In this document: positions 8,032 through 18,684 of the stretch, in pieces | Layout: each line of letters opens with the position of its first letter | How positions within the stretch are numbered: position 1 is the first letter of the stretch | DNA from: a bacterium HR30 | GTDB lineage: Bacteria; Desulfobacterota; Binatia; HRBIN30 | Assembly: GCA_002898795.1 (NCBI GenBank) | Contig: BEIG01000001.1 | Location: 192 to 64,191, forward strand | Reading direction: 5' to 3' | DNA: 64,000 nucleotides | Notes under the pieces: model-generated | Databases searched by the model: none | Told to the model about the DNA's origin: nothing | What the model saw: the letters and a program-made list of their open reading frames with translations, nothing else | Translations under genes and position numbers: made by a program

Positions 8032-8952
8032 CTAGTGCCGCCACCACCGCCTGACTTCGCGCTCCCACAAAGCAACTTCGGGAGGCAACCAGGCCACAAT
8101 CGGTTCGCGCCGGAACCACGTAAGCTGCCGCTTCGCGAAGCGGCGGGTGGCTCGCGCCATTGCAGCAATCGCTTCGTCGAGTGCTACTTCGCCCCGCACG
8201 TAAGCGCCAATTTCCCGGTATCCCAGGCTTTGCAACGCAGGAAGGTGCGCCGAGTAGCCACGATCGTAAAGGCTGCGCACTTCCTCGACGAAGCCCGCTT
8301 CGATCATCTGGTGGCAACGAAGGTCGATGCGGCGGTAAAGCTCCGCCCTCGGCAAATCGACGGCAAGCAGCACGACTTCGTAGCGCCCAGTGGCAAACCG
8401 GTGCTGAGCCTGCCACGAGCTCATGGGCTGCCCAGTCTTGTGATAAACCTCCAGGGCACGAATGAGTCGGACATAATCGTGCGGGTGCAACCGGCGCGCA
8501 CTCTGCTCGTCGACCTCTGAGAGTTGTCGATGCAAAAAGCCCGGCTCCGCACGCTCCCTGGCCATCCACTGCGCCCGCAGAACCGGATCGCGCGAAGGCC
8601 CGGGGAACAAACCACCCCGGAGCACCCGCACGTAAAGGCCCGTTCCACCCACCACCAACACGCGGCGACCACGGCCACGTACCTCCGCGATGGCCTCGTC
8701 GGCCAACTGGAGAAACCGGGCGCAGTGAAATTCCTCGTCAGGGTCCACCACGTCCACGACGTGATGGCGCACCCGTTGCCGCTCAGCCTTCGTCGGCTTT
8801 GCACTCCCGATGTCTAAACCGCGATACACCTGCCGCGAGTCGGCATTGATAATCTCCGCGCCGAACCGTTCGGCGAGTTCGAGGGCAAGCCCGGTCTTGC
8901 CCGCAGCGGTCGGGCCAACGATGGCAAGAATTGGCTCGGAAGGTGGATTCAT
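8032..8952 (-). CDS. miaA: tRNA dimethylallyltransferase
   Basis: P-loop ILAIVGPTAAGKTGLALELA with an IPPT-family body. The ATG at 8950-8952 overlaps the upstream ABC ATPase stop as ATGA. Confidence 0.9.
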   Translation of the reverse strand: MNPPSEPILAIVGPTAAGKTGLALELAERFGAEIINADSRQVYRGLDIGSAKPTKAERQRVRHHVVDVVDPDEEFHCARFLQLADEAIAEVRGRGRRVLVVGGTGLYVRVLRGGLFPGPSRDPVLRAQWMARERAEPGFLHRQLSEVDEQSARRLHPHDYVRLIRALEVYHKTGQPMSSWQAQHRFATGRYEVVLLAVDLPRAELYRRIDLRCHQMIEAGFVEEVRSLYDRGYSAHLPALQSLGYREIGAYVRGEVALDEAIAAMARATRRFAKRQLTWFRREPIVAWLPPEVALWEREVRRWWRH

Positions 8953-10016
8953 CTGCGTGTTCGGCCTGCGCTCCAAGACGGACCGTCGAGTGGTGGATCG
9001 ATCCAATGAACTGCGCTCGATTTGAAAGTAACAAACACCGACTCCCCCACCGCAAGGCCCAATTCCGCAAACGCACGTGCGGTGATGCGGGCCACGAGCT
9101 CCACACCGCAGTCCACGTGGATGAAAAAGCCCGATTCGCTCCCTTCCACCCGAGTGACCACGCCGGCCAAGCTATTGCGCGCGCTCGAGTGCAGTGGCTG
9201 CCGCGACAGGAGCAAGCTTTCGGGATCGATCGCCACGGTCGCCGGTCCTTCACCCAAGGGACGGGGCGGCACCACGATGTGCAACCGCCCGGTATCAAGC
9301 ACTAGATCCTCGCCGTGCTGGCGCAGGCGGCCGCGCACGACATTGACAAAGGGGAACGGCACCATGCGGCCACCGTCGAGGCTAATGATTTGATCCGCCA
9401 GCCGATACGCCTGGTCGAGAGCGTGGGTGGACAGCACGACCGTACGCCCTCGAGCCACCAACTCCCGCACCAACGACTCGAAAACGGGCACGAAATCCCG
9501 ATCGAGGTTGGCCGTAGGCTCATCGAACAAAAAAATCGGCGGATCGATGGCCAGCGCTCGCGCAATGGCAACCCGTTGCGCTTCGCCCCCAGAAAGCTTC
9601 CACGCCGGCCGGTGGGCGTAATGTGCTAGACCTACTCGTTCCAAAGATTCCCACACACGTGTACGATCGTACTGCCCGCGTACGCGCAGTCCGTAGGCCG
9701 CGTTCGCGAAGACACTGCGACGAAACAAGCACGGACGCTGGGCAACGTAAGTGGCTACCCGGCACAGCCGCTGCCCGTTCGTGGCAAGGGGCGCGTACGT
9801 GGTCCCGAGGCACTCGAAGTACGAGGCCACCGCAACGCGCAATCCGGCCAACACCTCGAGGAGCGAGGTTTTGCCTGCACCGTTCGGGCCCACCACTGCC
9901 GTCACCTGCGAGGCAGGAACTTCCAGTTGGTCGATCTGCAAAAGGGTGCTGGGCCCCTCGACGACGCGCAACTCCTGCAGGAAGAATGCGAGGGGCGCTG
10001 TGGTCACGGTAGCCAT
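8949..10016 (-). CDS. ABC transporter ATP-binding protein with a C-terminal TOBE/MOP domain (ModC/TupC/WtpC-like)
   Basis: Walker A GPNGAGKTS, signature LSGGEAQRVAIARAL, Walker B IFLFDEP. C-terminal SARNSLAGVVTRVE fits the TOBE motif. Confidence 0.85.
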   Translation of the reverse strand: MATVTTAPLAFFLQELRVVEGPSTLLQIDQLEVPASQVTAVVGPNGAGKTSLLEVLAGLRVAVASYFECLGTTYAPLATNGQRLCRVATYVAQRPCLFRRSVFANAAYGLRVRGQYDRTRVWESLERVGLAHYAHRPAWKLSGGEAQRVAIARALAIDPPIFLFDEPTANLDRDFVPVFESLVRELVARGRTVVLSTHALDQAYRLADQIISLDGGRMVPFPFVNVVRGRLRQHGEDLVLDTGRLHIVVPPRPLGEGPATVAIDPESLLLSRQPLHSSARNSLAGVVTRVEGSESGFFIHVDCGVELVARITARAFAELGLAVGESVFVTFKSSAVHWIDPPLDGPSWSAGRTRR

Positions 10017-10698
10017 CTCGGGCTCCACCACCAGGCCAACAGGTTAACAGCCAGCGCAAGCCCTAGCAGCAAAATGCCTAGAGCGAACGCTAAAGCGAAA
10101 TCGCCCTTGCTCGTTTCTAAGGCAATGGCCGTGGTGAGTGTCCGCGTCGAGCCCCGAATGTTGCCGCCCAGCATCAAGGCTACACCGAGCTCGGACAGGA
10201 GTCGGCCAAACGTCGTGACGGCAATCCCGACGATTCCGTAACGAAGCTCGAACAACAGCGTGAGCAGTGCTTGCGCAGGCGACGCGCCCAAAGTTCTTGC
10301 TGTCGCCTCGATACGGGGGTCTGCCTCGGCAACGAGGGAAAGCGTGAGAGCAGCCACGAGTGGGAACACCAGTGCAGCTTCGCCCAAAATCATTGCGGTA
10401 GGGGTGTAAAGCAGACCCAAAACGCCTAGCGGCCCGCTGCGGGAAAGTAACGCGTAAAAGAGCAAGCCCACCACCACGGTGGGCATGGCGGTCAGCGTCT
10501 TCACCAGCACTTCTACCAGAGTGCGGCCGGGGAAGCGGTAGCGAGCGAGTGCGAGGCCACACGGAATGCCACCGAGGCCGGCCAAAGCGGTGGCCACGAG
10601 CGAGACGTATAACGACATCCACGCGGCTTGCACGACATCCGGCTCAGCTCGCCAAAGCAAACGGAGCGCTTCACGCCATGCCTCGCTCAACGGCGTCA
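10004..10698 (-). CDS. ABC transporter permease (ModB/TupB-like)
   Basis: The N-terminus resembles ModB, and EADPRIEATARTLGASP is the EAA loop. The exact start is uncertain (GTG near 10696-10698 or ATG at 10615-10617). Its stop overlaps the ATPase start by 13 nt. Confidence 0.75.
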
Positions 10699-10843
10699 CA
10701 GTGCCAAAATGCAAGCACGGGATAGTGCGAATCACAATGCAGGCGAGCGAGGCCACGGGTTCGGCGGCCACCAAGAAGCTGCGCGAGGCGGCACGGTTCC
10801 TGTCTGGAGTAACCAAGTAGCACCGTGCTAAACGGGCGGGCGT

Positions 10844-11680
10844 ATGAACACGGCGAGAACACGCAAGGCGCTCGCGTTCGCGCTCGTAATCGGCTCGGTG
10901 GTGAGTCTGGCGAGCCCCAATTTGGGCACGGCACAGGAGGGCGCGCAGACTTCCGGGATTGTCCGCTCGCGCCTCGTGCGTGTGGAAACGAGTCGCCTGG
11001 TGGCGATTTTGGGCGGCCAAGCCACAGAGCCAGAACACGTATTCGCCCTGCCAATGGAGCGCCTTCTTGCCCTCGCCAAAGATCCTGGCAGCGGTGTCAA
11101 GCTGGAAGAACACGAGCTTCGACTCAGTGGCCGCCGCATTCGAATCGACCAAATTGCCTCCAAAGAGCCGAGCTATGTGATCGTAGACGTGGCCGGGGGT
11201 ACCATGCAGTGGGTCCACCCCCAAAAGCGCTCCTACGTGGAATGGCGGAAGCCTCCCGCACCCGCCAAAAACCCGACACCACTCCCGCAACTGGAACCGC
11301 TGGAACGCGAGGCCAACATCAACGGCTTTCGTACGCGAGGCTACCGGCTACGGACAGACTCGGGCACGGCTTGGTTGTGGATTGCGCAAGAACCGCAAGC
11401 GCTAGTTTCGGTGCTTCAAGCGCTGGCCGAGCTTCAAACCCTCGTGAAGCCAACGATCGAGTCCTTCGAACAGTTGGCCACCTTACGCGGCATGCAAGAG
11501 GGAGTGGTGATACGTATGCAAGCACTCACTCCAAAGGAGTACATCGTTCAGGAGTTGGTTTCCTTCACGCCGAAAAGGTGGGATACGGCAGATTTTCGCG
11601 TCCCGCCGGGGTGGAAAGGTGTGCCGGTGGAACGCGCTGGGGCGGCAACGCAAGGCGGAAGTTGTCAGAACTGTGAGTAA
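10844..11680 (+). CDS. Secreted hypothetical protein
   Basis: Signal peptide MNTARTRKALAFALVIGSVVSLASP. Divergent from the ABC operon. Stop TAA at 11678-11680. Confidence 0.55.
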   Translation: MNTARTRKALAFALVIGSVVSLASPNLGTAQEGAQTSGIVRSRLVRVETSRLVAILGGQATEPEHVFALPMERLLALAKDPGSGVKLEEHELRLSGRRIRIDQIASKEPSYVIVDVAGGTMQWVHPQKRSYVEWRKPPAPAKNPTPLPQLEPLEREANINGFRTRGYRLRTDSGTAWLWIAQEPQALVSVLQALAELQTLVKPTIESFEQLATLRGMQEGVVIRMQALTPKEYIVQELVSFTPKRWDTADFRVPPGWKGVPVERAGAATQGGSCQNCE

Positions 11681-12515
11681 CGAAAAGATCCATCCAGCCC
11701 TCGCGGCCTTTGCTCCCGGATTGTTTCGGGGGCAGACTGCTTTAGTCACGGGCGGCGGGCGCGGCATTGGCCGCGCGATCGCCCTGGCTTTTGCCCGGTT
11801 TGGGGCCAACGTGGTGATTGCGGCACGAACACCCCAACCGCTGGAGCAAACTTCTCATGACATAGCTGCACTAGGAGCAGAGTGCCTTGCGGTGCCAACC
11901 AACATCCGAGAAATCGAACAGGTCGAGCAGCTCGTGGCACGCTCGGTGGAGCGCTTTGGGGCCATCGACTTCCTGGTGAACAATGCGGGTGGGCAGTTTC
12001 CCGCTCGCCCGTTCGACATTAGCGATCGCGGTTGGCGCGCAGTGATCGACCTGAACCTCCATGGCACTTGGAACATGTTGAGCCGAGTGGGTCGGCACAT
12101 GACCGAGCGCAAGTTCGGGGCCGTGGTCAATATCGTTCACATTTACTCCTTCGAGCGCGGTGCACCGGCCTTTGCGCATTCGGGTGCAGCGCGCGCAGGC
12201 GTGGTGAACCTCACCCGCTCGTTGGCTTACTACTGGGCACGCCACGGAGTAACCGTGAACGCCCTTGCGCCGGGCACCGTTTCGACCCGTGGCCTGCGAG
12301 AGGAGGAGTTCAGTCGCGCGGAAGTGAGCGATTACGAAGCGCTGGCCGTGCGGGATATCCCGGCCCATCGCCTTGCCGATCCGGAAGAAATCGCTGCGGC
12401 GGTGCTTTTCTTGTGCTCTCCTGCCGCGCGCTATATCAACGGTGCCGTCTTGGTCGTCGACGGTGCTCTCTCTTTGGACAACTGGACTCCCATGTGGGAT
12501 CCAGAAACGAGTTGA
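11673..12515 (+). CDS. SDR-family oxidoreductase
   Basis: TGGGRGIGRAIA cofactor motif, NNAG, and the YxxxK region. The likely start is GTG at 11673, overlapping the upstream stop; the ORF track starts at 11619. Confidence 0.85.
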   Translation: MSNEKIHPALAAFAPGLFRGQTALVTGGGRGIGRAIALAFARFGANVVIAARTPQPLEQTSHDIAALGAECLAVPTNIREIEQVEQLVARSVERFGAIDFLVNNAGGQFPARPFDISDRGWRAVIDLNLHGTWNMLSRVGRHMTERKFGAVVNIVHIYSFERGAPAFAHSGAARAGVVNLTRSLAYYWARHGVTVNALAPGTVSTRGLREEEFSRAEVSDYEALAVRDIPAHRLADPEEIAAAVLFLCSPAARYINGAVLVVDGALSLDNWTPMWDPETS

Positions 12516-12544
12516 ACCGTCACCTGCTCGCGAGGTTCGAACCC

Positions 12545-13552
12545 ATGCGAGAGGTGGCGTACACCGATGTCGTCGACGCCCAAGGGCGGATCGCCTCCCT
12601 GATTCACCGCACGCCGCTGCTTCGGTGCTCCAGCCTGGCTCAAGAACTAGATTGCCTCCTCTGGTTCAAGTGCGAACACTTTCAGCGCACTGGCTCGTTC
12701 AAATTTCGCGGCGCCTCGAACGCGGTGTTGTCCTTGCCTGCGGAAGTGGCAGAACGAGGGGTGGTCACTCACAGTTCGGGCAATCATGGGCAGGCATTGG
12801 CTCGCGCCGCAGCGATGCGCGGTGTACCAGCGTATGTGGTCATGCCCCAGGGCGCCGTACAGAGCAAAGCAGAAGCCGTAACCGCGTTTGGCGCCAAGCT
12901 CATTCGTTGCGCCGACACTCTAGCGGATCGGGAGCGAACAGCAGCAGAAGTTCAACGTGCAACTGGCGCTCATTTCGTGCATCCTTACGACGATGCGCGC
13001 GTGATTGCTGGCCAAGGCACCGTCGGCCTGGAACTGCTCCAACAGCTCCCGGAGGTCGACGTCGTGGTGGCCCCCGTGGGCGGCGGGGGACTGCTGAGCG
13101 GTGTTTGTCTTGCCATACACGAGCATCACCCGCGGGTGCGTATCTTTGCTGCCGAGCCACGCGGTGCGGACGATGCTGCCCGATCGTTGCGTAGCGGCGT
13201 CCGGCAATCGCTCGACCGAGCGTGTACGGTCGCCGACGGCCTGCGGGCGCAACTGAGCGACCGCACGTTCACGATTTTGCGGCAACATCTCGAAGACGTG
13301 GTGGTGGTGGACGACGCGGCAATTGTTCGCTCGATGCGTTTGCTCTGGCACCGAACGAAGTGGGTGGTCGAACCGAGCGCCGCCATTGCATTTGCCGCGT
13401 TGTGCGAACCTTCCCTGCTCCGGCAATGCCGTGGACGCAATGTGGTGGTCATCCTGACTGGGGGAAACGTCGATTTGGATTCCTTGCCCTGGGTCAACCC
13501 TACGAGGCAGGAACTTCAGCAAAAGCAAGAACGAGAGAAGGAGGGTCCATGA
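12545..13552 (+). CDS. PLP-dependent serine/threonine dehydratase-family enzyme (threonine ammonia-lyase or serine racemase-like)
   Basis: SFKFRGA PLP-lysine motif and the GGGGL glycine loop. ATG at 12545. The N-terminal extension shown in the ORF track is alternate-frame junk. Confidence 0.85.
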   Translation: MREVAYTDVVDAQGRIASLIHRTPLLRCSSLAQELDCLLWFKCEHFQRTGSFKFRGASNAVLSLPAEVAERGVVTHSSGNHGQALARAAAMRGVPAYVVMPQGAVQSKAEAVTAFGAKLIRCADTLADRERTAAEVQRATGAHFVHPYDDARVIAGQGTVGLELLQQLPEVDVVVAPVGGGGLLSGVCLAIHEHHPRVRIFAAEPRGADDAARSLRSGVRQSLDRACTVADGLRAQLSDRTFTILRQHLEDVVVVDDAAIVRSMRLLWHRTKWVVEPSAAIAFAALCEPSLLRQCRGRNVVVILTGGNVDLDSLPWVNPTRQELQQKQEREKEGP

Positions 13553-14184
13553 AAGCCGAAACGATTGCACCATTGTTCGCCAACAACCGTGCATGGGCGG
13601 CATCGATGACTGCGCGGGATCCCGAGTTTTTCCTGCGTCTATCCCGGCAACAAGCACCACAGTATCTGTGGATCGGCTGTGCCGACAGCCGCGTACCGGC
13701 AAACGAGATCGTCGGGCTCTTACCCGGCGAAATTTTCGTCCACCGCAACGTCGCCAACATCGTGTTCCACGCAGACCTCAACTGTCTCTCCGTGCTCCAG
13801 TATGCCGTAGAGGTTCTACGGGTGCGCCACATCATCGTGTGCGGGCACTACGGCTGCGGGGGCGTGGCTCACGCCATGGGCCACGGCGAGTTAGGGCTGA
13901 TCGACAACTGGCTTCGGTGCATCAAAGACCTCTATTTGCAGCATGCCAACGAACTCGATCGGCTCGACGAGGCATCGCGTCTTCGCCGGCTCTGCGAGCT
14001 CAACGTGCGCCAACAAGTGGCCAACACCTGCCACACAACGATTGTGCAAAAAGCGTGGGCAAACGGCCAAGAGCTTACGGTTCACGGACTGATCTACGAC
14101 ATCCGTGACGGTTTACTGCACGATCTCGAGGTCAGTACGAACGACCCCCGACAGGTGCCGTCGATCTATCGCCTCCAACGTTAA
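13549..14184 (+). CDS. Beta-class carbonic anhydrase
   Basis: CADSRV and HYGCGG zinc-ligand motifs. ATGA overlap with the upstream stop. Confidence 0.9.
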   Translation: MKAETIAPLFANNRAWAASMTARDPEFFLRLSRQQAPQYLWIGCADSRVPANEIVGLLPGEIFVHRNVANIVFHADLNCLSVLQYAVEVLRVRHIIVCGHYGCGGVAHAMGHGELGLIDNWLRCIKDLYLQHANELDRLDEASRLRRLCELNVRQQVANTCHTTIVQKAWANGQELTVHGLIYDIRDGLLHDLEVSTNDPRQVPSIYRLQR

Positions 14185-14260
14185 TCGCTCGTGGGCTTGC
14201 TCCAAAAACGCCCGCACATAAAATCGGCTGTGCTACTTTGCATCCAAAAGGAGGGTTCCG

Positions 14261-15646
14261 TTGGCCGGGATCATTCGGTACGGCAGTTACGTGCCCTATT
14301 TTCGCTTGCAGCGCCAAGCAATTGGGGCTGGGCGCGGCGAAAGGGCTGTGGCCAGCTACGATGAAGACGCTGCGTCGCTGGCGGTGGAAGCAGCGCGCGA
14401 TGCTGTCCGCGGTGGACTTCGTGTCGATGCGCTACTGTTTGCTACCACCAGTCCCCCGTACGCAGAGAAGCTCAATGCGGCAACGATTCAGGCAGCTTTG
14501 GACTTGGCCGAATCCATCGCCAGTTTCGAGCTTTCTGCCACCACGCGCGCCGGTGCATCGGCTTTGGCCTTGGGTCTGGATCTGGCCATGGCCGGACGCA
14601 CGGTACTCGTGTGCGCCAGCGACATTTCTGTTGGAGCCCCCGGTGGGGTCCGCGAGGCTCAAGGGGGTGATGCCGGCGTCGCGTTCGTGGTTGGCGGAGA
14701 CGGGGATGCCGTGGCGCGGCTCCTCGGCAAGGCCACATGCACGATCGAGATCCTCGACGTGTGGCGAATTCCCGAAGAACGCTTTCCGCGTTCCTGGGAG
14801 GAACGGTTTGCCGCCGAGAGTATGGGTCCGGCCGTGCTCGACACCGTTCAGCAGGCGCTTGCGGTGGCGGGCGTGAGCCCCCAGTCGCTCACACACGTGG
14901 TTCTGGATGGAGTCAACCCTCGTACGCTGGCACAATTGCCGCGAGCGCTCGGGCTGGAGCCAGCAAAACTTGTCGACAACCTGACGCAAACAATTGGTCG
15001 TTGTGGCTGCGCCCATGCCGGACTCGGGCTCGCCCACGTCCTCGATCGGGCTCAACCTGGCGACCGGATTCTGGTCGTGAGCGAAGCCGATGGCGTGGAT
15101 GCCTTGGTGTTCGAAGTGACCGATCGCATTCGTTCCTTCCCGAAACCACGACCCGTGCAGCGGTGGATCGACTCCAAGCGGAACGATCTCGCGTACCCAA
15201 CCTACCTCAAATGGCGCGGTATCCTGCCGTTCGAGCCACCGCGGCGGCCCGACCCCGAGCGGCCGGCTGCGCCCGTGATGCGACGGCACGAGCGATGGAA
15301 AATGGCCTTCGTCGGCTCGCGTTGTCTGCGCTGTCAAACCGGGCATCTACCCCCACAGCGGGTGTGCGTGCACTGCGGCGCGGTCGACGAAATGCGCGAA
15401 GAGCGTTATGCCGACACCTCGTGTCGGGTCACGACCTATACCCTGGACTACCTCGCCTACTCCTTGCAGCCACCTGTCGTCGTGGCCGTCGCCGACTACG
15501 AAGGCGGTGGACGCTTTAGTTGCGAACTAACCGACGTCGATCCGAAACAAGTGAAAATTGGCGGCCAGTTAGAAATGACCTTTCGCCGCCTCTACACAGC
15601 AGAGGGAGTGCACAACTACTTTTGGAAAGCACGGCCCATGCGCTAA
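14261..15646 (+). CDS. HMG-CoA synthase-like (thiolase-fold) domain fused to a C-terminal DUF35 Zn-ribbon/OB-fold domain
   Basis: GIIRYGSYVPYFR, DEDAASLAVEAAR and QPGDRILVVS...VFEVTD are collinear with archaeal HMGCS. The C-terminus CLRCQTGHLPPQRVCVHCG is DUF35-like. TTG start with RBS AAAGGAGGG. Confidence 0.8.
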   Translation: MAGIIRYGSYVPYFRLQRQAIGAGRGERAVASYDEDAASLAVEAARDAVRGGLRVDALLFATTSPPYAEKLNAATIQAALDLAESIASFELSATTRAGASALALGLDLAMAGRTVLVCASDISVGAPGGVREAQGGDAGVAFVVGGDGDAVARLLGKATCTIEILDVWRIPEERFPRSWEERFAAESMGPAVLDTVQQALAVAGVSPQSLTHVVLDGVNPRTLAQLPRALGLEPAKLVDNLTQTIGRCGCAHAGLGLAHVLDRAQPGDRILVVSEADGVDALVFEVTDRIRSFPKPRPVQRWIDSKRNDLAYPTYLKWRGILPFEPPRRPDPERPAAPVMRRHERWKMAFVGSRCLRCQTGHLPPQRVCVHCGAVDEMREERYADTSCRVTTYTLDYLAYSLQPPVVVAVADYEGGGRFSCELTDVDPKQVKIGGQLEMTFRRLYTAEGVHNYFWKARPMR

Positions 15647-15675
15647 ACCCCAGGCGAAACGAGGAGGACGTTTCC

Positions 15676-16851
15676 ATGGCAAGCAAAGGAATCAAAGACC
15701 GGGTAGCGATCGTGGGTATGGGTTGTACCCCGTTCGGAGAACACTGGGACAAGGGTCCGGAGGACCTCCTCATCGAGGCCGCGCGCGAGGCTTACGCCTC
15801 GGCAAACATCGAACCCGAGCAAGTCGACGCCTACTGGCTCGGCACGATGGCGAGTGGGTTTTCCGGGCTCATGTTATCCGAAGCGCTGAAGATCCCCTAC
15901 AAACCTGTCACCCGCTTGGAAAACATGTGTGCGACCGGAAGCGAGGCACTGCGCAACGCTGCCTACGCCGTGGCCAGTGGGGCGTACGACCTGGTGATGG
16001 CCATCGGAGTGGAGAAACTCAAAGACTCGGGTTTTTCCGGGCTCGCCATGGCCAATCCACCCCACGATGGCACGATCTCCAGCATGACCGCGCCAGCGAC
16101 CTTTTCCCTGCTCGCCCCAGCTTATTCCAAAAAGTACAACGTACCGGAGGACACGCTCAAGCAGGTGCTCGCCCGCATTGCTTGGAAAAACCACAAGAAC
16201 GGCGCGCGTAACCCGAAGGCGCAGTTCCGCAAAGAAGTTTCCATGGAAACGATTTGCAATGCGCCGCCCGTGGCCGGCATGCTCGGGATTTTCGACTGCT
16301 CGGGCGTCAGCGATGGCGCGGCAGCAGCCATTCTCTGCCGTGCCGAGGATGCCCATCGGTACACAGATAAGCCAATTTTCATCAAGGCACTGGCGTTCGC
16401 GGCTGGTCCCGCTGAAGGTTACTTCAGTCAGCATTATGATTTTACGACGTTCCCCGAAGTCGTGCGCAGCGCCGAAGATGCATACCGCCAAGCTGGCGTA
16501 ACCAACCCGCGGGAAGAAATCAGTATGGCCGAGGTGCACGACTGCTTTACCCCAACGGAACTCGTACTGATGGAAGACATGGGCTTTTCCGCCCGCGGGC
16601 AAGCGTGGCGCGATGTGCTCGACGGCCGGTTTGACGGCGATGGCCCCCAGCCGATCAACCCTGACGGTGGGTTGAAGAGCTTCGGTCATCCCATTGGTGC
16701 CAGCGGACTGCGGATGATGTACGAAATGTGGCTCCAACTCCGGGTCGAGGCTGGCCCGCGGCAAATCCCCAACCCCAAATTGGGGCTCACCCACAATCTC
16801 GGCGGCGCTCCCGGACGATGCGTGAGCTTCGTTTCGATCGTAGGGCTGTAA
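15676..16851 (+). CDS. SCP-x / archaeal-type thiolase (acetyl-CoA C-acyltransferase family)
   Basis: NMCATGSEAL catalytic Cys, HDCF, and GGLKSFGHPIGASG. ATG at 15676 with RBS GAGGAGGA. Confidence 0.85.
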   Translation: MASKGIKDRVAIVGMGCTPFGEHWDKGPEDLLIEAAREAYASANIEPEQVDAYWLGTMASGFSGLMLSEALKIPYKPVTRLENMCATGSEALRNAAYAVASGAYDLVMAIGVEKLKDSGFSGLAMANPPHDGTISSMTAPATFSLLAPAYSKKYNVPEDTLKQVLARIAWKNHKNGARNPKAQFRKEVSMETICNAPPVAGMLGIFDCSGVSDGAAAAILCRAEDAHRYTDKPIFIKALAFAAGPAEGYFSQHYDFTTFPEVVRSAEDAYRQAGVTNPREEISMAEVHDCFTPTELVLMEDMGFSARGQAWRDVLDGRFDGDGPQPINPDGGLKSFGHPIGASGLRMMYEMWLQLRVEAGPRQIPNPKLGLTHNLGGAPGRCVSFVSIVGL

Positions 16852-16853
16852 CC

Positions 16854-17366
16854 TCAGTCGCCAGACCGGGGCGACTCGGTCGTCGACTCGCTCCCTTGCC
16901 TCTGGGAGCGGCGAGAACGTAAGCGCTCGGCAACGGGAGGCACGGCTTTCAGAAGCATATCGAAGTAAGCCAGATCCCGCCCCACTGCCGCTTCCAGTGC
17001 GGCTTCGTACGCAGCCAGCGCGGGCTCCAACTCGCCTTCTTTCTCGGGGATGATTTCATCGTTTTCATCGAGGCAGGCATTCACCTTTTCCGCCAGTTGT
17101 TCCAGGCGTTCTTCGCCATCCTCGCCGAGCTTGCCGTGCAAGGTTTCGTTCCAGACGGCAAAAAAACCAAAGGTGGCTGCGCTCTGGCGGCGCAGCCCTC
17201 CGCTGAGCAAGTAAAGCTGCTCGGCAAGCTGTTCCGCCTCAGGCCGGCCGCGCCGCGTGACCAAGGCTCCCACCCGCACCAGCTTGTCCCGCAAGCGCTG
17301 CACTCCGAGCTCGCGTGCAAGCAAGCACACCGCCTCGCGAAATTCACTCGCCGTCAGTTGTGCCAT
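16854..17366 (-). CDS. Hypothetical acidic protein
   Basis: ATG at 17364-17366 with a GGAG RBS. No recognisable domain. Lies downstream of thiI. Confidence 0.5.
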   Translation of the reverse strand: MAQLTASEFREAVCLLARELGVQRLRDKLVRVGALVTRRGRPEAEQLAEQLYLLSGGLRRQSAATFGFFAVWNETLHGKLGEDGEERLEQLAEKVNACLDENDEIIPEKEGELEPALAAYEAALEAAVGRDLAYFDMLLKAVPPVAERLRSRRSQRQGSESTTESPRSGD

Positions 17367-17487
17367 TCCCCTCGTTCTCCTCTCGCCGATTTTCTGAGTT
17401 GAATCCCGTTCTACCGGAGTTCCCTAGAAAGCCTCGTCTCCTGGAGCAATGGCGCTTCGAAGCCAATCCCGCATGGGTCGCGCACCC

Positions 17488-18684
17488 TCAAGGGAAGGAG
17501 TACTCAAACGTCTCGATGCCGGCCAAAGCCTCTGCCACCAATGCGGGAATGTTCAACGGCTCCTCGGCTCGTCGCGCCTCGGCTGCCGACATCCGCGTTG
17601 CTGGCAGTGGAGGCACGAACAGTTGGCAGCAGTCTTGGTCGGGCTGGATGGAGATTTCGTAAGTGCCAATTCGCTCCGCTTGGGCACGAATTTCGTTTTT
17701 GTCCATGGCAATGAGCGGGCGGAGTACCATGGAGTCTACCGCATCCTCGATTGCGGCTAAATTCTCGAGAGTTTGAGAGGCCACCTGGCCAAGACTTTCT
17801 CCGGTGACCAAAGCTTGCGCTCCAACACGGGTGGCCAGCTCTTGCGCAATCCGCAGCATCATCCGGCGATACAAAACCACGCGGTACGGACGCGCCACCG
17901 CAGCCACAATTTGCCGTTGAATCTCCCCGAACACGACGCAGTGCAGGCGCGAGTGAAGCTGGTAGCGGGTCAATAGCCGTGCCAATTCTTGTGCCTTTTC
18001 TAGGCTGCGGCGGTCTTGGTAGGGAGCACCGGAAAAATGAAGGAATTCCACGCGGCAACCACGGCCCATCATCCGCCAAGCGGCAACGGGCGAATCGATG
18101 CCACCACTGAGAAGCGTCAGCACCGTTCCACTCACCCCCACGGGCAGCCCACCCAGCCCGCGCAGCCGTTCCACAGAAACAAACGCCTCGCGTGCCAAAA
18201 CCTCGATGTGCACTTCCACGTCTGGGTGCTCTAGATCCACTTTCCAACCCAACTCGTCCTTCAGAATCTTTCCAACCTGACGGGCAATCTCTGGCGAAGT
18301 GAGCGGATAACTCTTATCCGCGCGTTTCGCCCGCACGGCAAAACTTCCCGCTTGCCGGCCAGCCAAGGCCTTCAAGGCTGTGGCCGCGAGACTTTCGATC
18401 TGCCTCTCGCTCTTCCAGGCAAAGGCGAAGTTGGCAATCCCGAACACCCACCCCAGGCGTTCGCGAATGACCGGCCACTCCTCAGGGTCCGGAACGTGAA
18501 TCACGACCCGTCCCTCCGCAGAGCGCACCAGCGAGCAGGCAGTATCGCGCAGCACGCCTTCGATGTTGCGCATGAGCTGGCGCACGAACATAGGCCGATT
18601 GCGCTGTTTCAGGGCGATTTCGTGATAGTGGACGATCACGCGTTGCACGGGCGGGATCCCTTTATCCCCACGGTGCCGGGGCAC
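17488..18684 (-). CDS. thiI: tRNA 4-thiouridine(8) synthase ThiI (short form, no rhodanese domain)
   Basis: THUMP-like N-terminus and PP-loop LLSGGIDSPVAAW. Confidence 0.9.
   Translation of the reverse strand: MPRHRGDKGIPPVQRVIVHYHEIALKQRNRPMFVRQLMRNIEGVLRDTACSLVRSAEGRVVIHVPDPEEWPVIRERLGWVFGIANFAFAWKSERQIESLAATALKALAGRQAGSFAVRAKRADKSYPLTSPEIARQVGKILKDELGWKVDLEHPDVEVHIEVLAREAFVSVERLRGLGGLPVGVSGTVLTLLSGGIDSPVAAWRMMGRGCRVEFLHFSGAPYQDRRSLEKAQELARLLTRYQLHSRLHCVVFGEIQRQIVAAVARPYRVVLYRRMMLRIAQELATRVGAQALVTGESLGQVASQTLENLAAIEDAVDSMVLRPLIAMDKNEIRAQAERIGTYEISIQPDQDCCQLFVPPLPATRMSAAEARRAEEPLNIPALVAEALAGIETFEYSFP

Follow-up and report, generated by a model that had tools for sequence, protein, structure and literature searches.

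A predicted heteromeric thiolase operon in bacterium HR30 that pairs a catalytically dead HMG-CoA-synthase-like–DUF35 fusion with an intact thiolase

The window, i.e. the whole stretch of 64,000 nucleotides that was analysed, contains two adjacent genes that probably constitute an operon encoding a heteromeric thiolase. A catalytically dead HMG-CoA synthase (HMGS)-like domain, fused to a DUF35 module, would act as the scaffold for the catalytic thiolase encoded downstream, and the two proteins would assemble into a thiolytic complex. The dead-HMGS–DUF35/thiolase arrangement as such is not new, as it was already described and assayed biochemically in 2026 (PMC12960953). Our additions to that work are modest: the pair appears to be an ancient conserved module, often located among β-oxidation genes, rather than a transient intermediate, and it is commonly mis-annotated as HMG-CoA synthase.

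The features of both genes are listed in Table 1. The fusion gene has a strong Shine-Dalgarno sequence. A promoter scan of positions 11000-17600 found no sigma-70-like site, and the terminator-like matches in a scan of the same region were unconvincing.

Table 1. Features of the fusion gene and the downstream thiolase gene (positions in the window).
Feature	Position	Strand	Remarks
Shine-Dalgarno AAGGAGG of fusion gene	14248-14254	+	6 nt 5' of TTG; from sequence
Fusion gene ORF	14261-15646	+	461 aa, TTG start, stop codon included
HMGS-like thiolase-fold domain	14261-15226	+	residues 1-322
Thr63	14447-14449	+	old catalytic position, HMGS-like domain
Thr95	14543-14545	+	old catalytic position, HMGS-like domain
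Asp216	14906-14908	+	old catalytic position, HMGS-like domain
Arg247	14999-15001	+	old catalytic position, HMGS-like domain
Pro/Arg-rich linker (PFEPPRRPDPERPAAPVMR)	15227-15283	+	residues 323-341; flanked by the 6ESQ_I and 6ESQ_E alignments
DUF35 module	15284-15643	+	residues 342-461; N-terminal helices, four-Cys zinc ribbon, OB fold
Zinc-ribbon Cys355, 358, 369, 372	15323-15376	+	rubredoxin-like; invariant in homologue alignment
Shine-Dalgarno GAGGAGG of thiolase gene	15661-15667	+	from sequence; within 29-nt intergenic gap
Thiolase gene, archaeal-ACAT/SCP2-type, intact	15676-16851	+	391 aa
Thiolase Cys85	15928-15930	+	nucleophile
Thiolase His288-Asp-Cys290-Phe (HDCF)	16537-16548	+	
Thiolase Gly337-His338 (GH motif)	16684-16689	+	

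The initial annotation had described the N-terminal part of the fusion protein as collinear with archaeal HMGS, and its C-terminal part as a fused DUF35 zinc ribbon and OB fold. Both descriptions were borne out by alignment, Pfam and the AF2 model. With phmmer, residues 3-322 aligned to residues 5-347 of the HMGS of M. thermolithotrophicus (6ESQ_I; E = 2.9e-29) and residues 342-459 to the DUF35 chain 6ESQ_E (E = 1.9e-8), while a profile comparison of the fusion protein with HMGS by hhalign gave a probability of 100% (E = 1e-39). The Pfam domains were ACP_syn_III_C, zf-ChsH2 and OB_ChsH2_C, of which OB_ChsH2_C (PF01796) scored above its gathering cut-off (35.3 vs 27.1 bits) and zf-ChsH2 (PF12172) just below (21.3 vs 23.2 bits). 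The best NCBIfam matches were the archaeal HMGS models NF003274 and TIGR00748, and the protein stayed below the curated archaeal HMGS cut-offs (176.4 vs 244 bits and 122.3 vs 353.35 bits).

The AF2 model of the fusion protein as a single polypeptide had a pLDDT of 93.7 and a pTM of 0.93, with the lowest pLDDT blocks (83-84) in the linker; the OB fold spans about residues 389-459. The top Foldseek match of this model was 6ET9_I (target-normalised TM 0.86, rmsd 2.1 Å), and the fold matches ran from the HMGS of 6ESQ/6ET9 to PhlA and MucA, in that order. Motifs in the translation comprise GIIRYGSYVPYFR (3-15), DEDAASLAVEAAR (34-46), TTSPPY (62-67), SATTRAG (92-98), LDGVNP (215-220), PGDRILVVS (266-274), VFEVTD (282-287) and CLRCQTGHLPPQRVCVHCG (355-373).

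The entire catalytic tetrad of 6ESQ HMGS is replaced in the fusion protein: Glu82 by Thr63, Cys114 by Thr95, His238 by Asp216 and Asn270 by Arg247. The loss of Glu, Cys and His had been claimed from the sequence at the outset; the alignments with 6ESQ returned these substitutions as first claimed and added the fourth, Asn to Arg. Pairwise phmmer, MAFFT (130 diverse homologues) and hhalign placed the tetrad in identical columns, and none of the three methods aligned Glu, Cys and His at the canonical positions. On these alignments, the agreement on the substitutions is far above chance.

The catalytic columns were inspected in three sets of homologues (120 close homologues, 78 from genome loci and 130 diverse representatives). 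Glu and Cys were absent from the first two catalytic positions in the about 330 homologues checked, and a single His occurred at the old His position among the 130 diverse representatives. In the MAFFT alignment, 102 of 131 sequences had Thr at the old Glu position, whereas the old Cys (L/T/V/A/P), His (S/Y/A/T/P/D) and Asn (N/D/Y/F/H/R) positions held a variety of residues across the family. Tetrad loss, the absence of Glu and Cys in homologues and the scores below the HMGS cut-offs all support the proposal that the HMGS-like domain is catalytically dead. A substitute nucleophile in this domain was considered and rejected, because Cys118, Cys158, Cys248 and Cys250 are unconserved across the family.

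The downstream thiolase scored well above the cut-off of PRK06157 (NCBIfam NF004810; 618.3 vs 403 bits). It was closest to 6ESQ_A (E = 3.4e-62), with weaker matches to BbsB (E = 3e-40) and PhlC (E = 4.5e-30). Its Cys, HDCF and GH motifs are kept in about 70 of the 71 partner thiolases.

In total, 72 of 81 loci, which represent the best ~80 of at least 580 genome loci, have the thiolase gene directly 3' of the fusion gene and in the same orientation. Among the loci examined, the pair was found in Binatia, Gammaproteobacteria, Acidobacteriota, Myxococcota, Actinomycetota, Bacillota, Chloroflexota, Rokubacteria and Methylomirabilia. Homologues of the fusion protein number thousands, its nearest relatives are Candidatus Binatia, and the ORF has stayed intact, at 461 aa ± about 20, across nine or more phyla. 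Averaged over the loci, the fusion protein of the window shares 52% identity with its counterparts and the thiolase 73%. Purifying selection is strong on both genes and weakest on the dead HMGS-like domain; dN/dS was about 0.045 in this domain, 0.031 in DUF35 and 0.012 in the thiolase, values that are rough because dS exceeds 1.

Recurrent neighbours of the pair encode acyl-CoA dehydrogenase, enoyl-CoA hydratase/MaoC, SDR, AMP-ligase and CoA-transferase, and β-oxidation contexts were found on Rhodococcus, Variovorax and Azoarcus replicons. No β-oxidation cluster was found around the pair in the window, where only an SDR gene is present 1.7 kb upstream. The window neighbours are genes for the SDR, a PLP enzyme, a beta-carbonic anhydrase, ThiI, MiaA and an ABC transporter; of these, only the SDR is seen repeatedly, in 21 loci and as a generic family. 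This exact neighbourhood was kept only in contigs with a fusion protein 81-90% identical to that of the window (90% in the syntenic contig L085). Neither the PLP enzyme nor the carbonic anhydrase travels with the pair, and a functional tie to either was rejected. PKS/NRPS genes were not found within about 8 kb, as judged from the window ORFs at 9-22 kb and the Pfam labels of contig L085.

The initial annotation had proposed the downstream thiolase as the partner of the fusion protein. This putative partnership is supported indirectly but strongly, by the conserved adjacency, by the likeness of the modules to the three subunits of 6ESQ, and by the P. fluorescens complex that has been assayed (PMC12960953).

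The latter complex, PfACAT/HMGS-DUF35 of Pseudomonas fluorescens, was reported in 2026 by Liao et al. (Nat Commun 17:2196, PMC12960953). Its fused HMGS-DUF35 lacks the E-C-H-N tetrad, while its ACAT retains Cys, HDxF and GHx. Expressed and assayed as a complex with ACAT, it cleaved acetoacetyl-CoA and gave no HMG-CoA; the His of HDxF was essential for activity, and a quadruple tetrad mutant of archaeal HMGS was inactive (PMC12960953). Furthermore, 1,001 of the 1,030 bacterial HMGS/ACAT/DUF35 loci in that study lacked adjacent secondary-metabolism machinery, and the P. fluorescens representative came from that category (PMC12960953). By architecture, as described in PMC12960953, the window pair is of the same type: a polypeptide that joins a dead HMGS-like domain to DUF35, an adjacent ACAT with Cys, HDxF and GHx, and no PKS/NRPS neighbours. 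It comes from another organism, with its nearest relatives in Candidatus Binatia. Liao et al. regarded the P. fluorescens complex as an evolutionary intermediate whose primary role is gone and which is as yet unrecruited (PMC12960953), whereas the conservation and genomic contexts described here suggest an established role in catabolism.

For each of the three modules, the nearest relative of known structure is a subunit of the archaeal complex 6ESQ (chains I, E and A), in which DUF35 is a separate polypeptide instead of being fused as it is here. In this archaeal thiolase/HMGS/DUF35 complex, dating from 2018, HMGS is reportedly active and is said to pull the unfavourable condensation via a shared CoA site. 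The HMGS site of the fusion protein is abolished, so that HMG-CoA would not be made.

PhlACB (PpATase, 5M3K/5MG5), CsATase (9SKH) and MucABC (SmaATase, 9VBO/9VBT) are Friedel-Crafts C-acyltransferases. Like the window pair, they have three modules, with the tetrad gone from the HMGS-like subunit (PhlA or MucA), and, as proposed for the window pair, catalysis is confined to the thiolase-like subunit. On its own, the MucABC thiolase subunit is inactive. In contrast to the thiolase described here, which keeps HDCF, PhlC and MucB no longer have HDxF, and their pocket is remodelled for small-molecule acceptors. Moreover, DUF35 forms a subunit of its own in these complexes, whose genes are located in PKS/NRPS clusters; neither applies to the window pair. 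In benzoylsuccinyl-CoA thiolase BbsAB (7PXP), a degradative SCP2-type thiolase needs a DUF35 zinc-ribbon/OB-fold partner. So do the thiolase-like aldolase Ltp2, with the DUF35 of ChsH2 (6OK1), and the thiolases of archaeal ketothiolase/DUF35 pairs, and in this group HDxF is catalytic. Unlike the window pair, BbsAB and the other SCP2-type thiolase/DUF35 pairs have no HMGS-like third module. The oestrogen/steroid DUF35 systems (AedL, ChsH2) were rejected as systems of the same kind, since they are MaoC-DUF35 fusions and not HMGS-like.

By analogy with the archaeal complex, PhlACB and MucABC, we infer complex formation and a division of labour between the two proteins. The thiolase, with its Cys85, HDCF and GH motifs intact, would be the sole catalyst. 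The upstream protein would be a pseudoenzyme, in which an HMGS fold with a Thr/Thr/Asp/Arg tetrad is followed by a Pro-rich linker and DUF35. The DUF35 part may bridge the two thiolase-fold subunits, and the dead HMGS-like part may form the other wall of an interfacial CoA-binding chamber and stabilise the thiolase. Because there is no HMGS activity to pull the condensation, thiolysis is the most likely direction of the reaction: the complex would cleave a 3-oxoacyl-CoA, the last step of a β-oxidation-type catabolic route. Condensation went undetected in vitro in the published homologue, as expected on thermodynamic grounds, and a biosynthetic role coupled to a downstream enzyme would stay compatible with the data.

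Several other readings of the fusion protein were weighed. One is that it is an evolutionary relic without present selective value, which is how Liao et al. interpreted the P. fluorescens member (PMC12960953) and would fit the lack of an obvious pathway context for the window pair. We consider this unlikely, as the ORF of ~461 aa has stayed intact in at least nine phyla with thousands of homologues, dN/dS is low (about 0.03-0.05, rough at dS >1), operon linkage is strict, and the pair repeatedly lies inside complete β-oxidation-type modules. It is also quite unlikely that the HMGS-like domain has been neofunctionalised and, with other residues, acts on the substrate or product of the thiolase in a new way, for example by aldol/retro-aldol chemistry, hydration or decarboxylation. 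Most of the conserved polar residues are also present in genuine HMGS (DED, PYxxK, DxWR) and are therefore accounted for by the fold and the interface. In addition, there is free variation at the old Cys, His and Asn positions, unlike in an active site, and the activity of the published homologue depended on the thiolase only and was lost on thiolase mutation (PMC12960953). These observations outweigh the strong purifying selection on the HMGS-like domain, the prevalence of Thr at the old Glu position, the several polar residues that are invariant or nearly so in the family (D34, E35, D36, Y67, K70, D121, E132, D137, W168, R182), and the precedent of thiolase-fold proteins repurposed as aldolases, Ltp2 and Sal (PMC12329534).

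A C-acyltransferase of the PhlACB/MucABC type, acetylating a small-molecule acceptor in secondary metabolism, is very unlikely. PhlC and MucB have lost HDxF, whereas HDCF is retained here and in about 70 of 71 partners; the match of the thiolase to archaeal ACAT (E = 3e-62) is much stronger than that to PhlC (E = 4.5e-30); no PKS/NRPS gene was found nearby; and thiolysis is performed by the fused P. fluorescens type but not by PhlACB or MucABC (PMC12960953). Such an activity would nevertheless be in line with the position of PhlA and MucA among the nearest solved relatives, by E-value (1e-21 to 1e-22) as well as by fold, and with their own lack of the catalytic tetrad (PMC12960953). A genuine but divergent HMG-CoA synthase of the mevalonate pathway is suggested by the JGI label of many close homologues and by the archaeal HMGS models as top NCBIfam matches. 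Yet the scores fall below both curated cut-offs, all four catalytic residues are replaced, the archaeal quadruple mutant shows no activity and HMG-CoA is not made by the fused P. fluorescens homologue (PMC12960953), which makes this reading extremely improbable.

After the 2026 paper (PMC12960953), nothing in the heteromeric thiolase proposed here is conceptually new. Thousands of homologous proteins are labelled as 'hydroxymethylglutaryl-CoA synthase' (JGI) or 'OB-fold domain-containing protein' (NCBI), and reading them as HMGS would lead to a mevalonate pathway being wrongly inferred in Binatia and other uncultured lineages. The evidence is evenly balanced as to a broader proposal, namely that the pairs form a class of bacterial degradative thiolases that is ancient, self-contained and obligately heteromeric, in which the pseudoenzyme is kept because it supplies half of the CoA chamber and which would serve acyl-CoA β-oxidation in at least nine phyla, the uncultured Binatia among them. 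The β-oxidation contexts in Rhodococcus, Variovorax and Azoarcus offer tractable starts toward the substrate of this thiolase class. The family would be a clean and very widespread case of a pseudoenzyme retained as a structural subunit of its old pathway partner, and may thereby be useful for understanding how a multi-enzyme complex can persist after one of its activities is lost.

The fusion of an HMG-CoA synthase (HMGS)-like domain to DUF35, as proposed in the initial annotation, was confirmed by Pfam and by matches to solved structures, and all motifs cited there were found in the translation of the gene. The top PDB match was 6ESQ_I, the HMGS chain of the M. thermolithotrophicus thiolase/HMGS/DUF35 complex (E 2.9e-29; fusion residues 3-322 with 6ESQ_I residues 5-347), followed by the Friedel-Crafts acyltransferase HMGS-like subunits CsATase (9SKH_A), PhlA (5M3K_A) and MucA (9VBO_A). 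The C-terminal 120 residues matched 6ESQ_E, the DUF35 chain of the archaeal complex (E 1.9e-8). In NCBIfam, the top matches were two archaeal HMGS models (residues 1-322), with scores far under both curated cut-offs (176 vs 244 bits and 122 vs 353 bits). The thiolase gene follows after a gap of 29 nt that contains GAGGAGG; a longer listed ORF from 15520 is an in-frame upstream extension of it.

Features of the fusion gene, its product and the adjoining genes in the window
Feature	Position	Strand	Remarks
SDR, PLP-dependent (PALP) enzyme, beta-carbonic anhydrase	11619-14184	+	directly upstream of fusion gene
Shine-Dalgarno AAGGAGG of fusion gene	six bases before TTG start	+	graded strong
Fusion ORF	14261-15646	+	461 aa, TTG start
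ACP_syn_III_C	fusion residues 200-279		Pfam
ChsH2/DUF35 zinc ribbon	fusion residues 350-374		Pfam
ChsH2/DUF35 OB fold	fusion residues 389-442		Pfam
Thiolase gene	15676-16851	+	391 aa, ATG start at 15676
170-aa protein, then ThiI	after thiolase gene	-	opposite strand

The catalytic tetrad of M. thermolithotrophicus HMGS consists of E82, C114, H238 and N270 (Liao et al., PMC12960953). In a phmmer alignment these residues paired with Thr63, Thr95, Asp216 and Arg247 of the fusion protein, all in high-confidence stretches. Identical columns were obtained when 130 diverse, full-length fused homologues (32-50% identity to the fusion) were aligned with MAFFT, and again from an hhalign profile comparison (probability 100%, E 1e-39). 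Hence, the substitutions of Glu, Cys and His claimed earlier are correct, none of the three alignments placing these residues at their canonical positions, and the fourth residue, Asn, is gone as well. Among the 130 representatives the former Glu position was mostly Thr and the former Cys position mostly Leu; Glu at the first position and Cys at the second were found in none of them, nor in 120 close homologues and 78 genome-locus homologues. Residues at the former Cys, His and Asn positions change freely from one member of the fusion family to another, and this speaks against a new active site there.

The fold is preserved and only its chemistry is lost. An AlphaFold2 model built from a 40-sequence alignment was confident (mean pLDDT 93.7, pTM 0.93), and Foldseek against the PDB ranked the HMGS of 6ET9_I/6ESQ first (target-normalised TM 0.86, rmsd 2.1 A); PhlA (5MG5_A, 9SKH) and MucA (9VBO) came next, ahead of ordinary bacterial HMGS and FabH enzymes.

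The thiolase scored above the curated cut-off of thiolase family PRK06157 (618 vs 403 bits). Its closest solved relative was 6ESQ_A, the thiolase chain of the archaeal complex (E 3.4e-62), with BbsB (3e-40) and PhlC (4.5e-30) well behind. The window thiolase retains Cys85 as its nucleophile (NMCATGS), HDCF at 288-291 and GH at 337-338; the same motifs occur in about 70 of the 71 partner thiolases of other genomes.

Fused proteins of this type are very common: a word-indexed search returned 4,880 matches at E <= 1e-5, of which those from Candidatus Binatia were the nearest with a name. When 50%-identity representatives were searched exhaustively, 532 clusters reached E <= 1e-30, and full-length fusions of 450-490 aa made up most of the 150 best. 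A scan with one genome per species found at least 580 loci with a homologue. The best 80 of these came from Binatia, Gammaproteobacteria (Porticoccaceae), Acidobacteriota, Myxococcota, Actinomycetota, Bacillota, Chloroflexota, Rokubacteria, Methylomirabilia and Burkholderiales. Among the matches listed, 72 of 81 loci had the thiolase gene immediately downstream and on the same strand, and seven more had it within 6 kb; in the last two, the contig ended no more than about 0.8 kb downstream of the fusion gene.

Conservation across loci L001-L086 decreased from the thiolase through DUF35 to the dead HMGS-like domain. The thiolase was far better conserved than the fusion (mean identity to the window 73% and 52%), and against L086 (fusion 81% identical) identities were 96% for the thiolase, 94% for DUF35 and 75% for the HMGS-like domain. 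Against one syntenic contig, L085 (fusion 90% identical), dN was 0.014, 0.034 and 0.077, respectively, and dN/dS was about 0.012 for the thiolase, 0.031 for the linker together with DUF35 and 0.045 for the HMGS-like domain, ratios that are rough because dS exceeds 1. Purifying selection is strong on all parts and least so on the dead domain, as would be expected of a structural subunit rather than a decaying relic.

All four DUF35 zinc-ribbon cysteines (columns of window residues 355-372) were replaced in 16 of the 78 genome-locus homologues, mostly from Actinomycetota/Acidimicrobiia MAGs (L041, L046, L047, L049, L055-L057, L062, L064, L067, L069, L070, L072, L078-L080). These homologues show the pattern D..S/T...S..G with the intervening HLPPxRV motif retained, and would be a zinc-less ribbon variant.

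The window neighbourhood was kept in contigs with a fusion 81-90% identical, but not in more distant relatives. An SDR and a carbonic anhydrase also lie upstream in L085 (5523-7927) and L086 (6220-7921), the PLP gene being absent from L086; none of the three was found upstream in more distant relatives. Because it is retained only in close relatives, we treated this neighbourhood as incidental, and the upstream genes probably reflect lineage synteny rather than a functional link. In L086 (fusion 81% identical) a cytochrome P450 gene (10620-11816, +) directly follows the thiolase gene on the same strand. Further upstream in the window, ABC-transporter ATPase and permease ORFs (~8949-10700, -) lie between miaA and a 278-aa ORF, whereas in L085 (3458-5425) miaA and the matching 276-aa gene are only ~70 nt apart, which suggests that ~1.8 kb was inserted or deleted between close relatives.

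Recurrent but not universal neighbours among the best 80 of at least 580 loci were SDRs (23 loci), AMP-dependent ligases (21), acyl-CoA dehydrogenases (20), enoyl-CoA hydratases (15) and CaiB-type CoA-transferases (7). In four annotated replicons the pair sits within complete beta-oxidation-type modules: Rhodococcus sp. DK17 pDK3 (second thiolase, SDR, crotonase), a Rhodococcus qingshengii plasmid (ring-hydroxylating dioxygenase, several hydratases, AMP-ligase, acyl-CoA dehydrogenase), Azoarcus sp. KH32C, and Variovorax paradoxus (in a row, SDR, MaoC, fusion, ACAT, acyl-CoA dehydrogenase, CoA-transferase).

This architecture is already published, and the window pair adds another member. Liao et al. 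(Nat Commun 2026, 17:2196; PMC12960953) surveyed 1,030 bacterial loci in which HMGS, ACAT and DUF35 are co-localised, of which 1,001 lacked secondary-metabolism neighbours, and characterised one P. fluorescens representative, a fused HMGS-DUF35 without E-C-H-N together with an ACAT that keeps Cys, HDxF and GHx. Given acetyl-CoA, that complex formed no HMG-CoA and no acetoacetyl-CoA. Acetoacetyl-CoA, by contrast, was cleaved, an activity nearly abolished by mutation of the HDxF His (PMC12960953). The window pair has every sequence-level feature of this type and fails the defining features of both genuine HMGS and the PhlACB/MucABC acylases. In the published complexes, DUF35 bridges the two thiolase-fold subunits and the interfacial CoA chamber is retained despite an inactive HMGS-like subunit (PMC12960953; PhlACB structure), and the MucB thiolase is inactive on its own (PMC12960953).

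These findings support the earlier interpretation of the fusion as a dead HMGS-like scaffold partnering the downstream thiolase. For the window pair we infer, rather than show, an assembled complex, the function of its chamber, and the direction and substrate of its reaction: the thiolase would be the sole catalyst and the fusion protein its scaffold, with DUF35 clamping the assembly and the HMGS-like part completing the CoA-binding chamber. As there would be no HMGS to pull condensation, the complex most likely runs thiolysis in beta-oxidation-like catabolism.

Liao et al. (PMC12960953) view the P. fluorescens complex as an evolutionary intermediate without pathway recruitment yet. Against this view, the broad distribution, strict operon linkage, low dN/dS and repeated embedding in beta-oxidation modules argue for a long-established function of the pair, a modest refinement and no discovery. 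JGI labels many near-identical homologues (P0011, P0014, P0023 and others) 'hydroxymethylglutaryl-CoA synthase', and NCBI labels them 'OB-fold domain-containing protein' or '3-oxoacyl-ACP synthase III C-terminal domain-containing protein'. As no curated family model for the fusion was found in NCBIfam, such labels amount to a systematic annotation problem. The main value of the pair is as an annotation warning and as an example of a widespread pseudoenzyme subunit.
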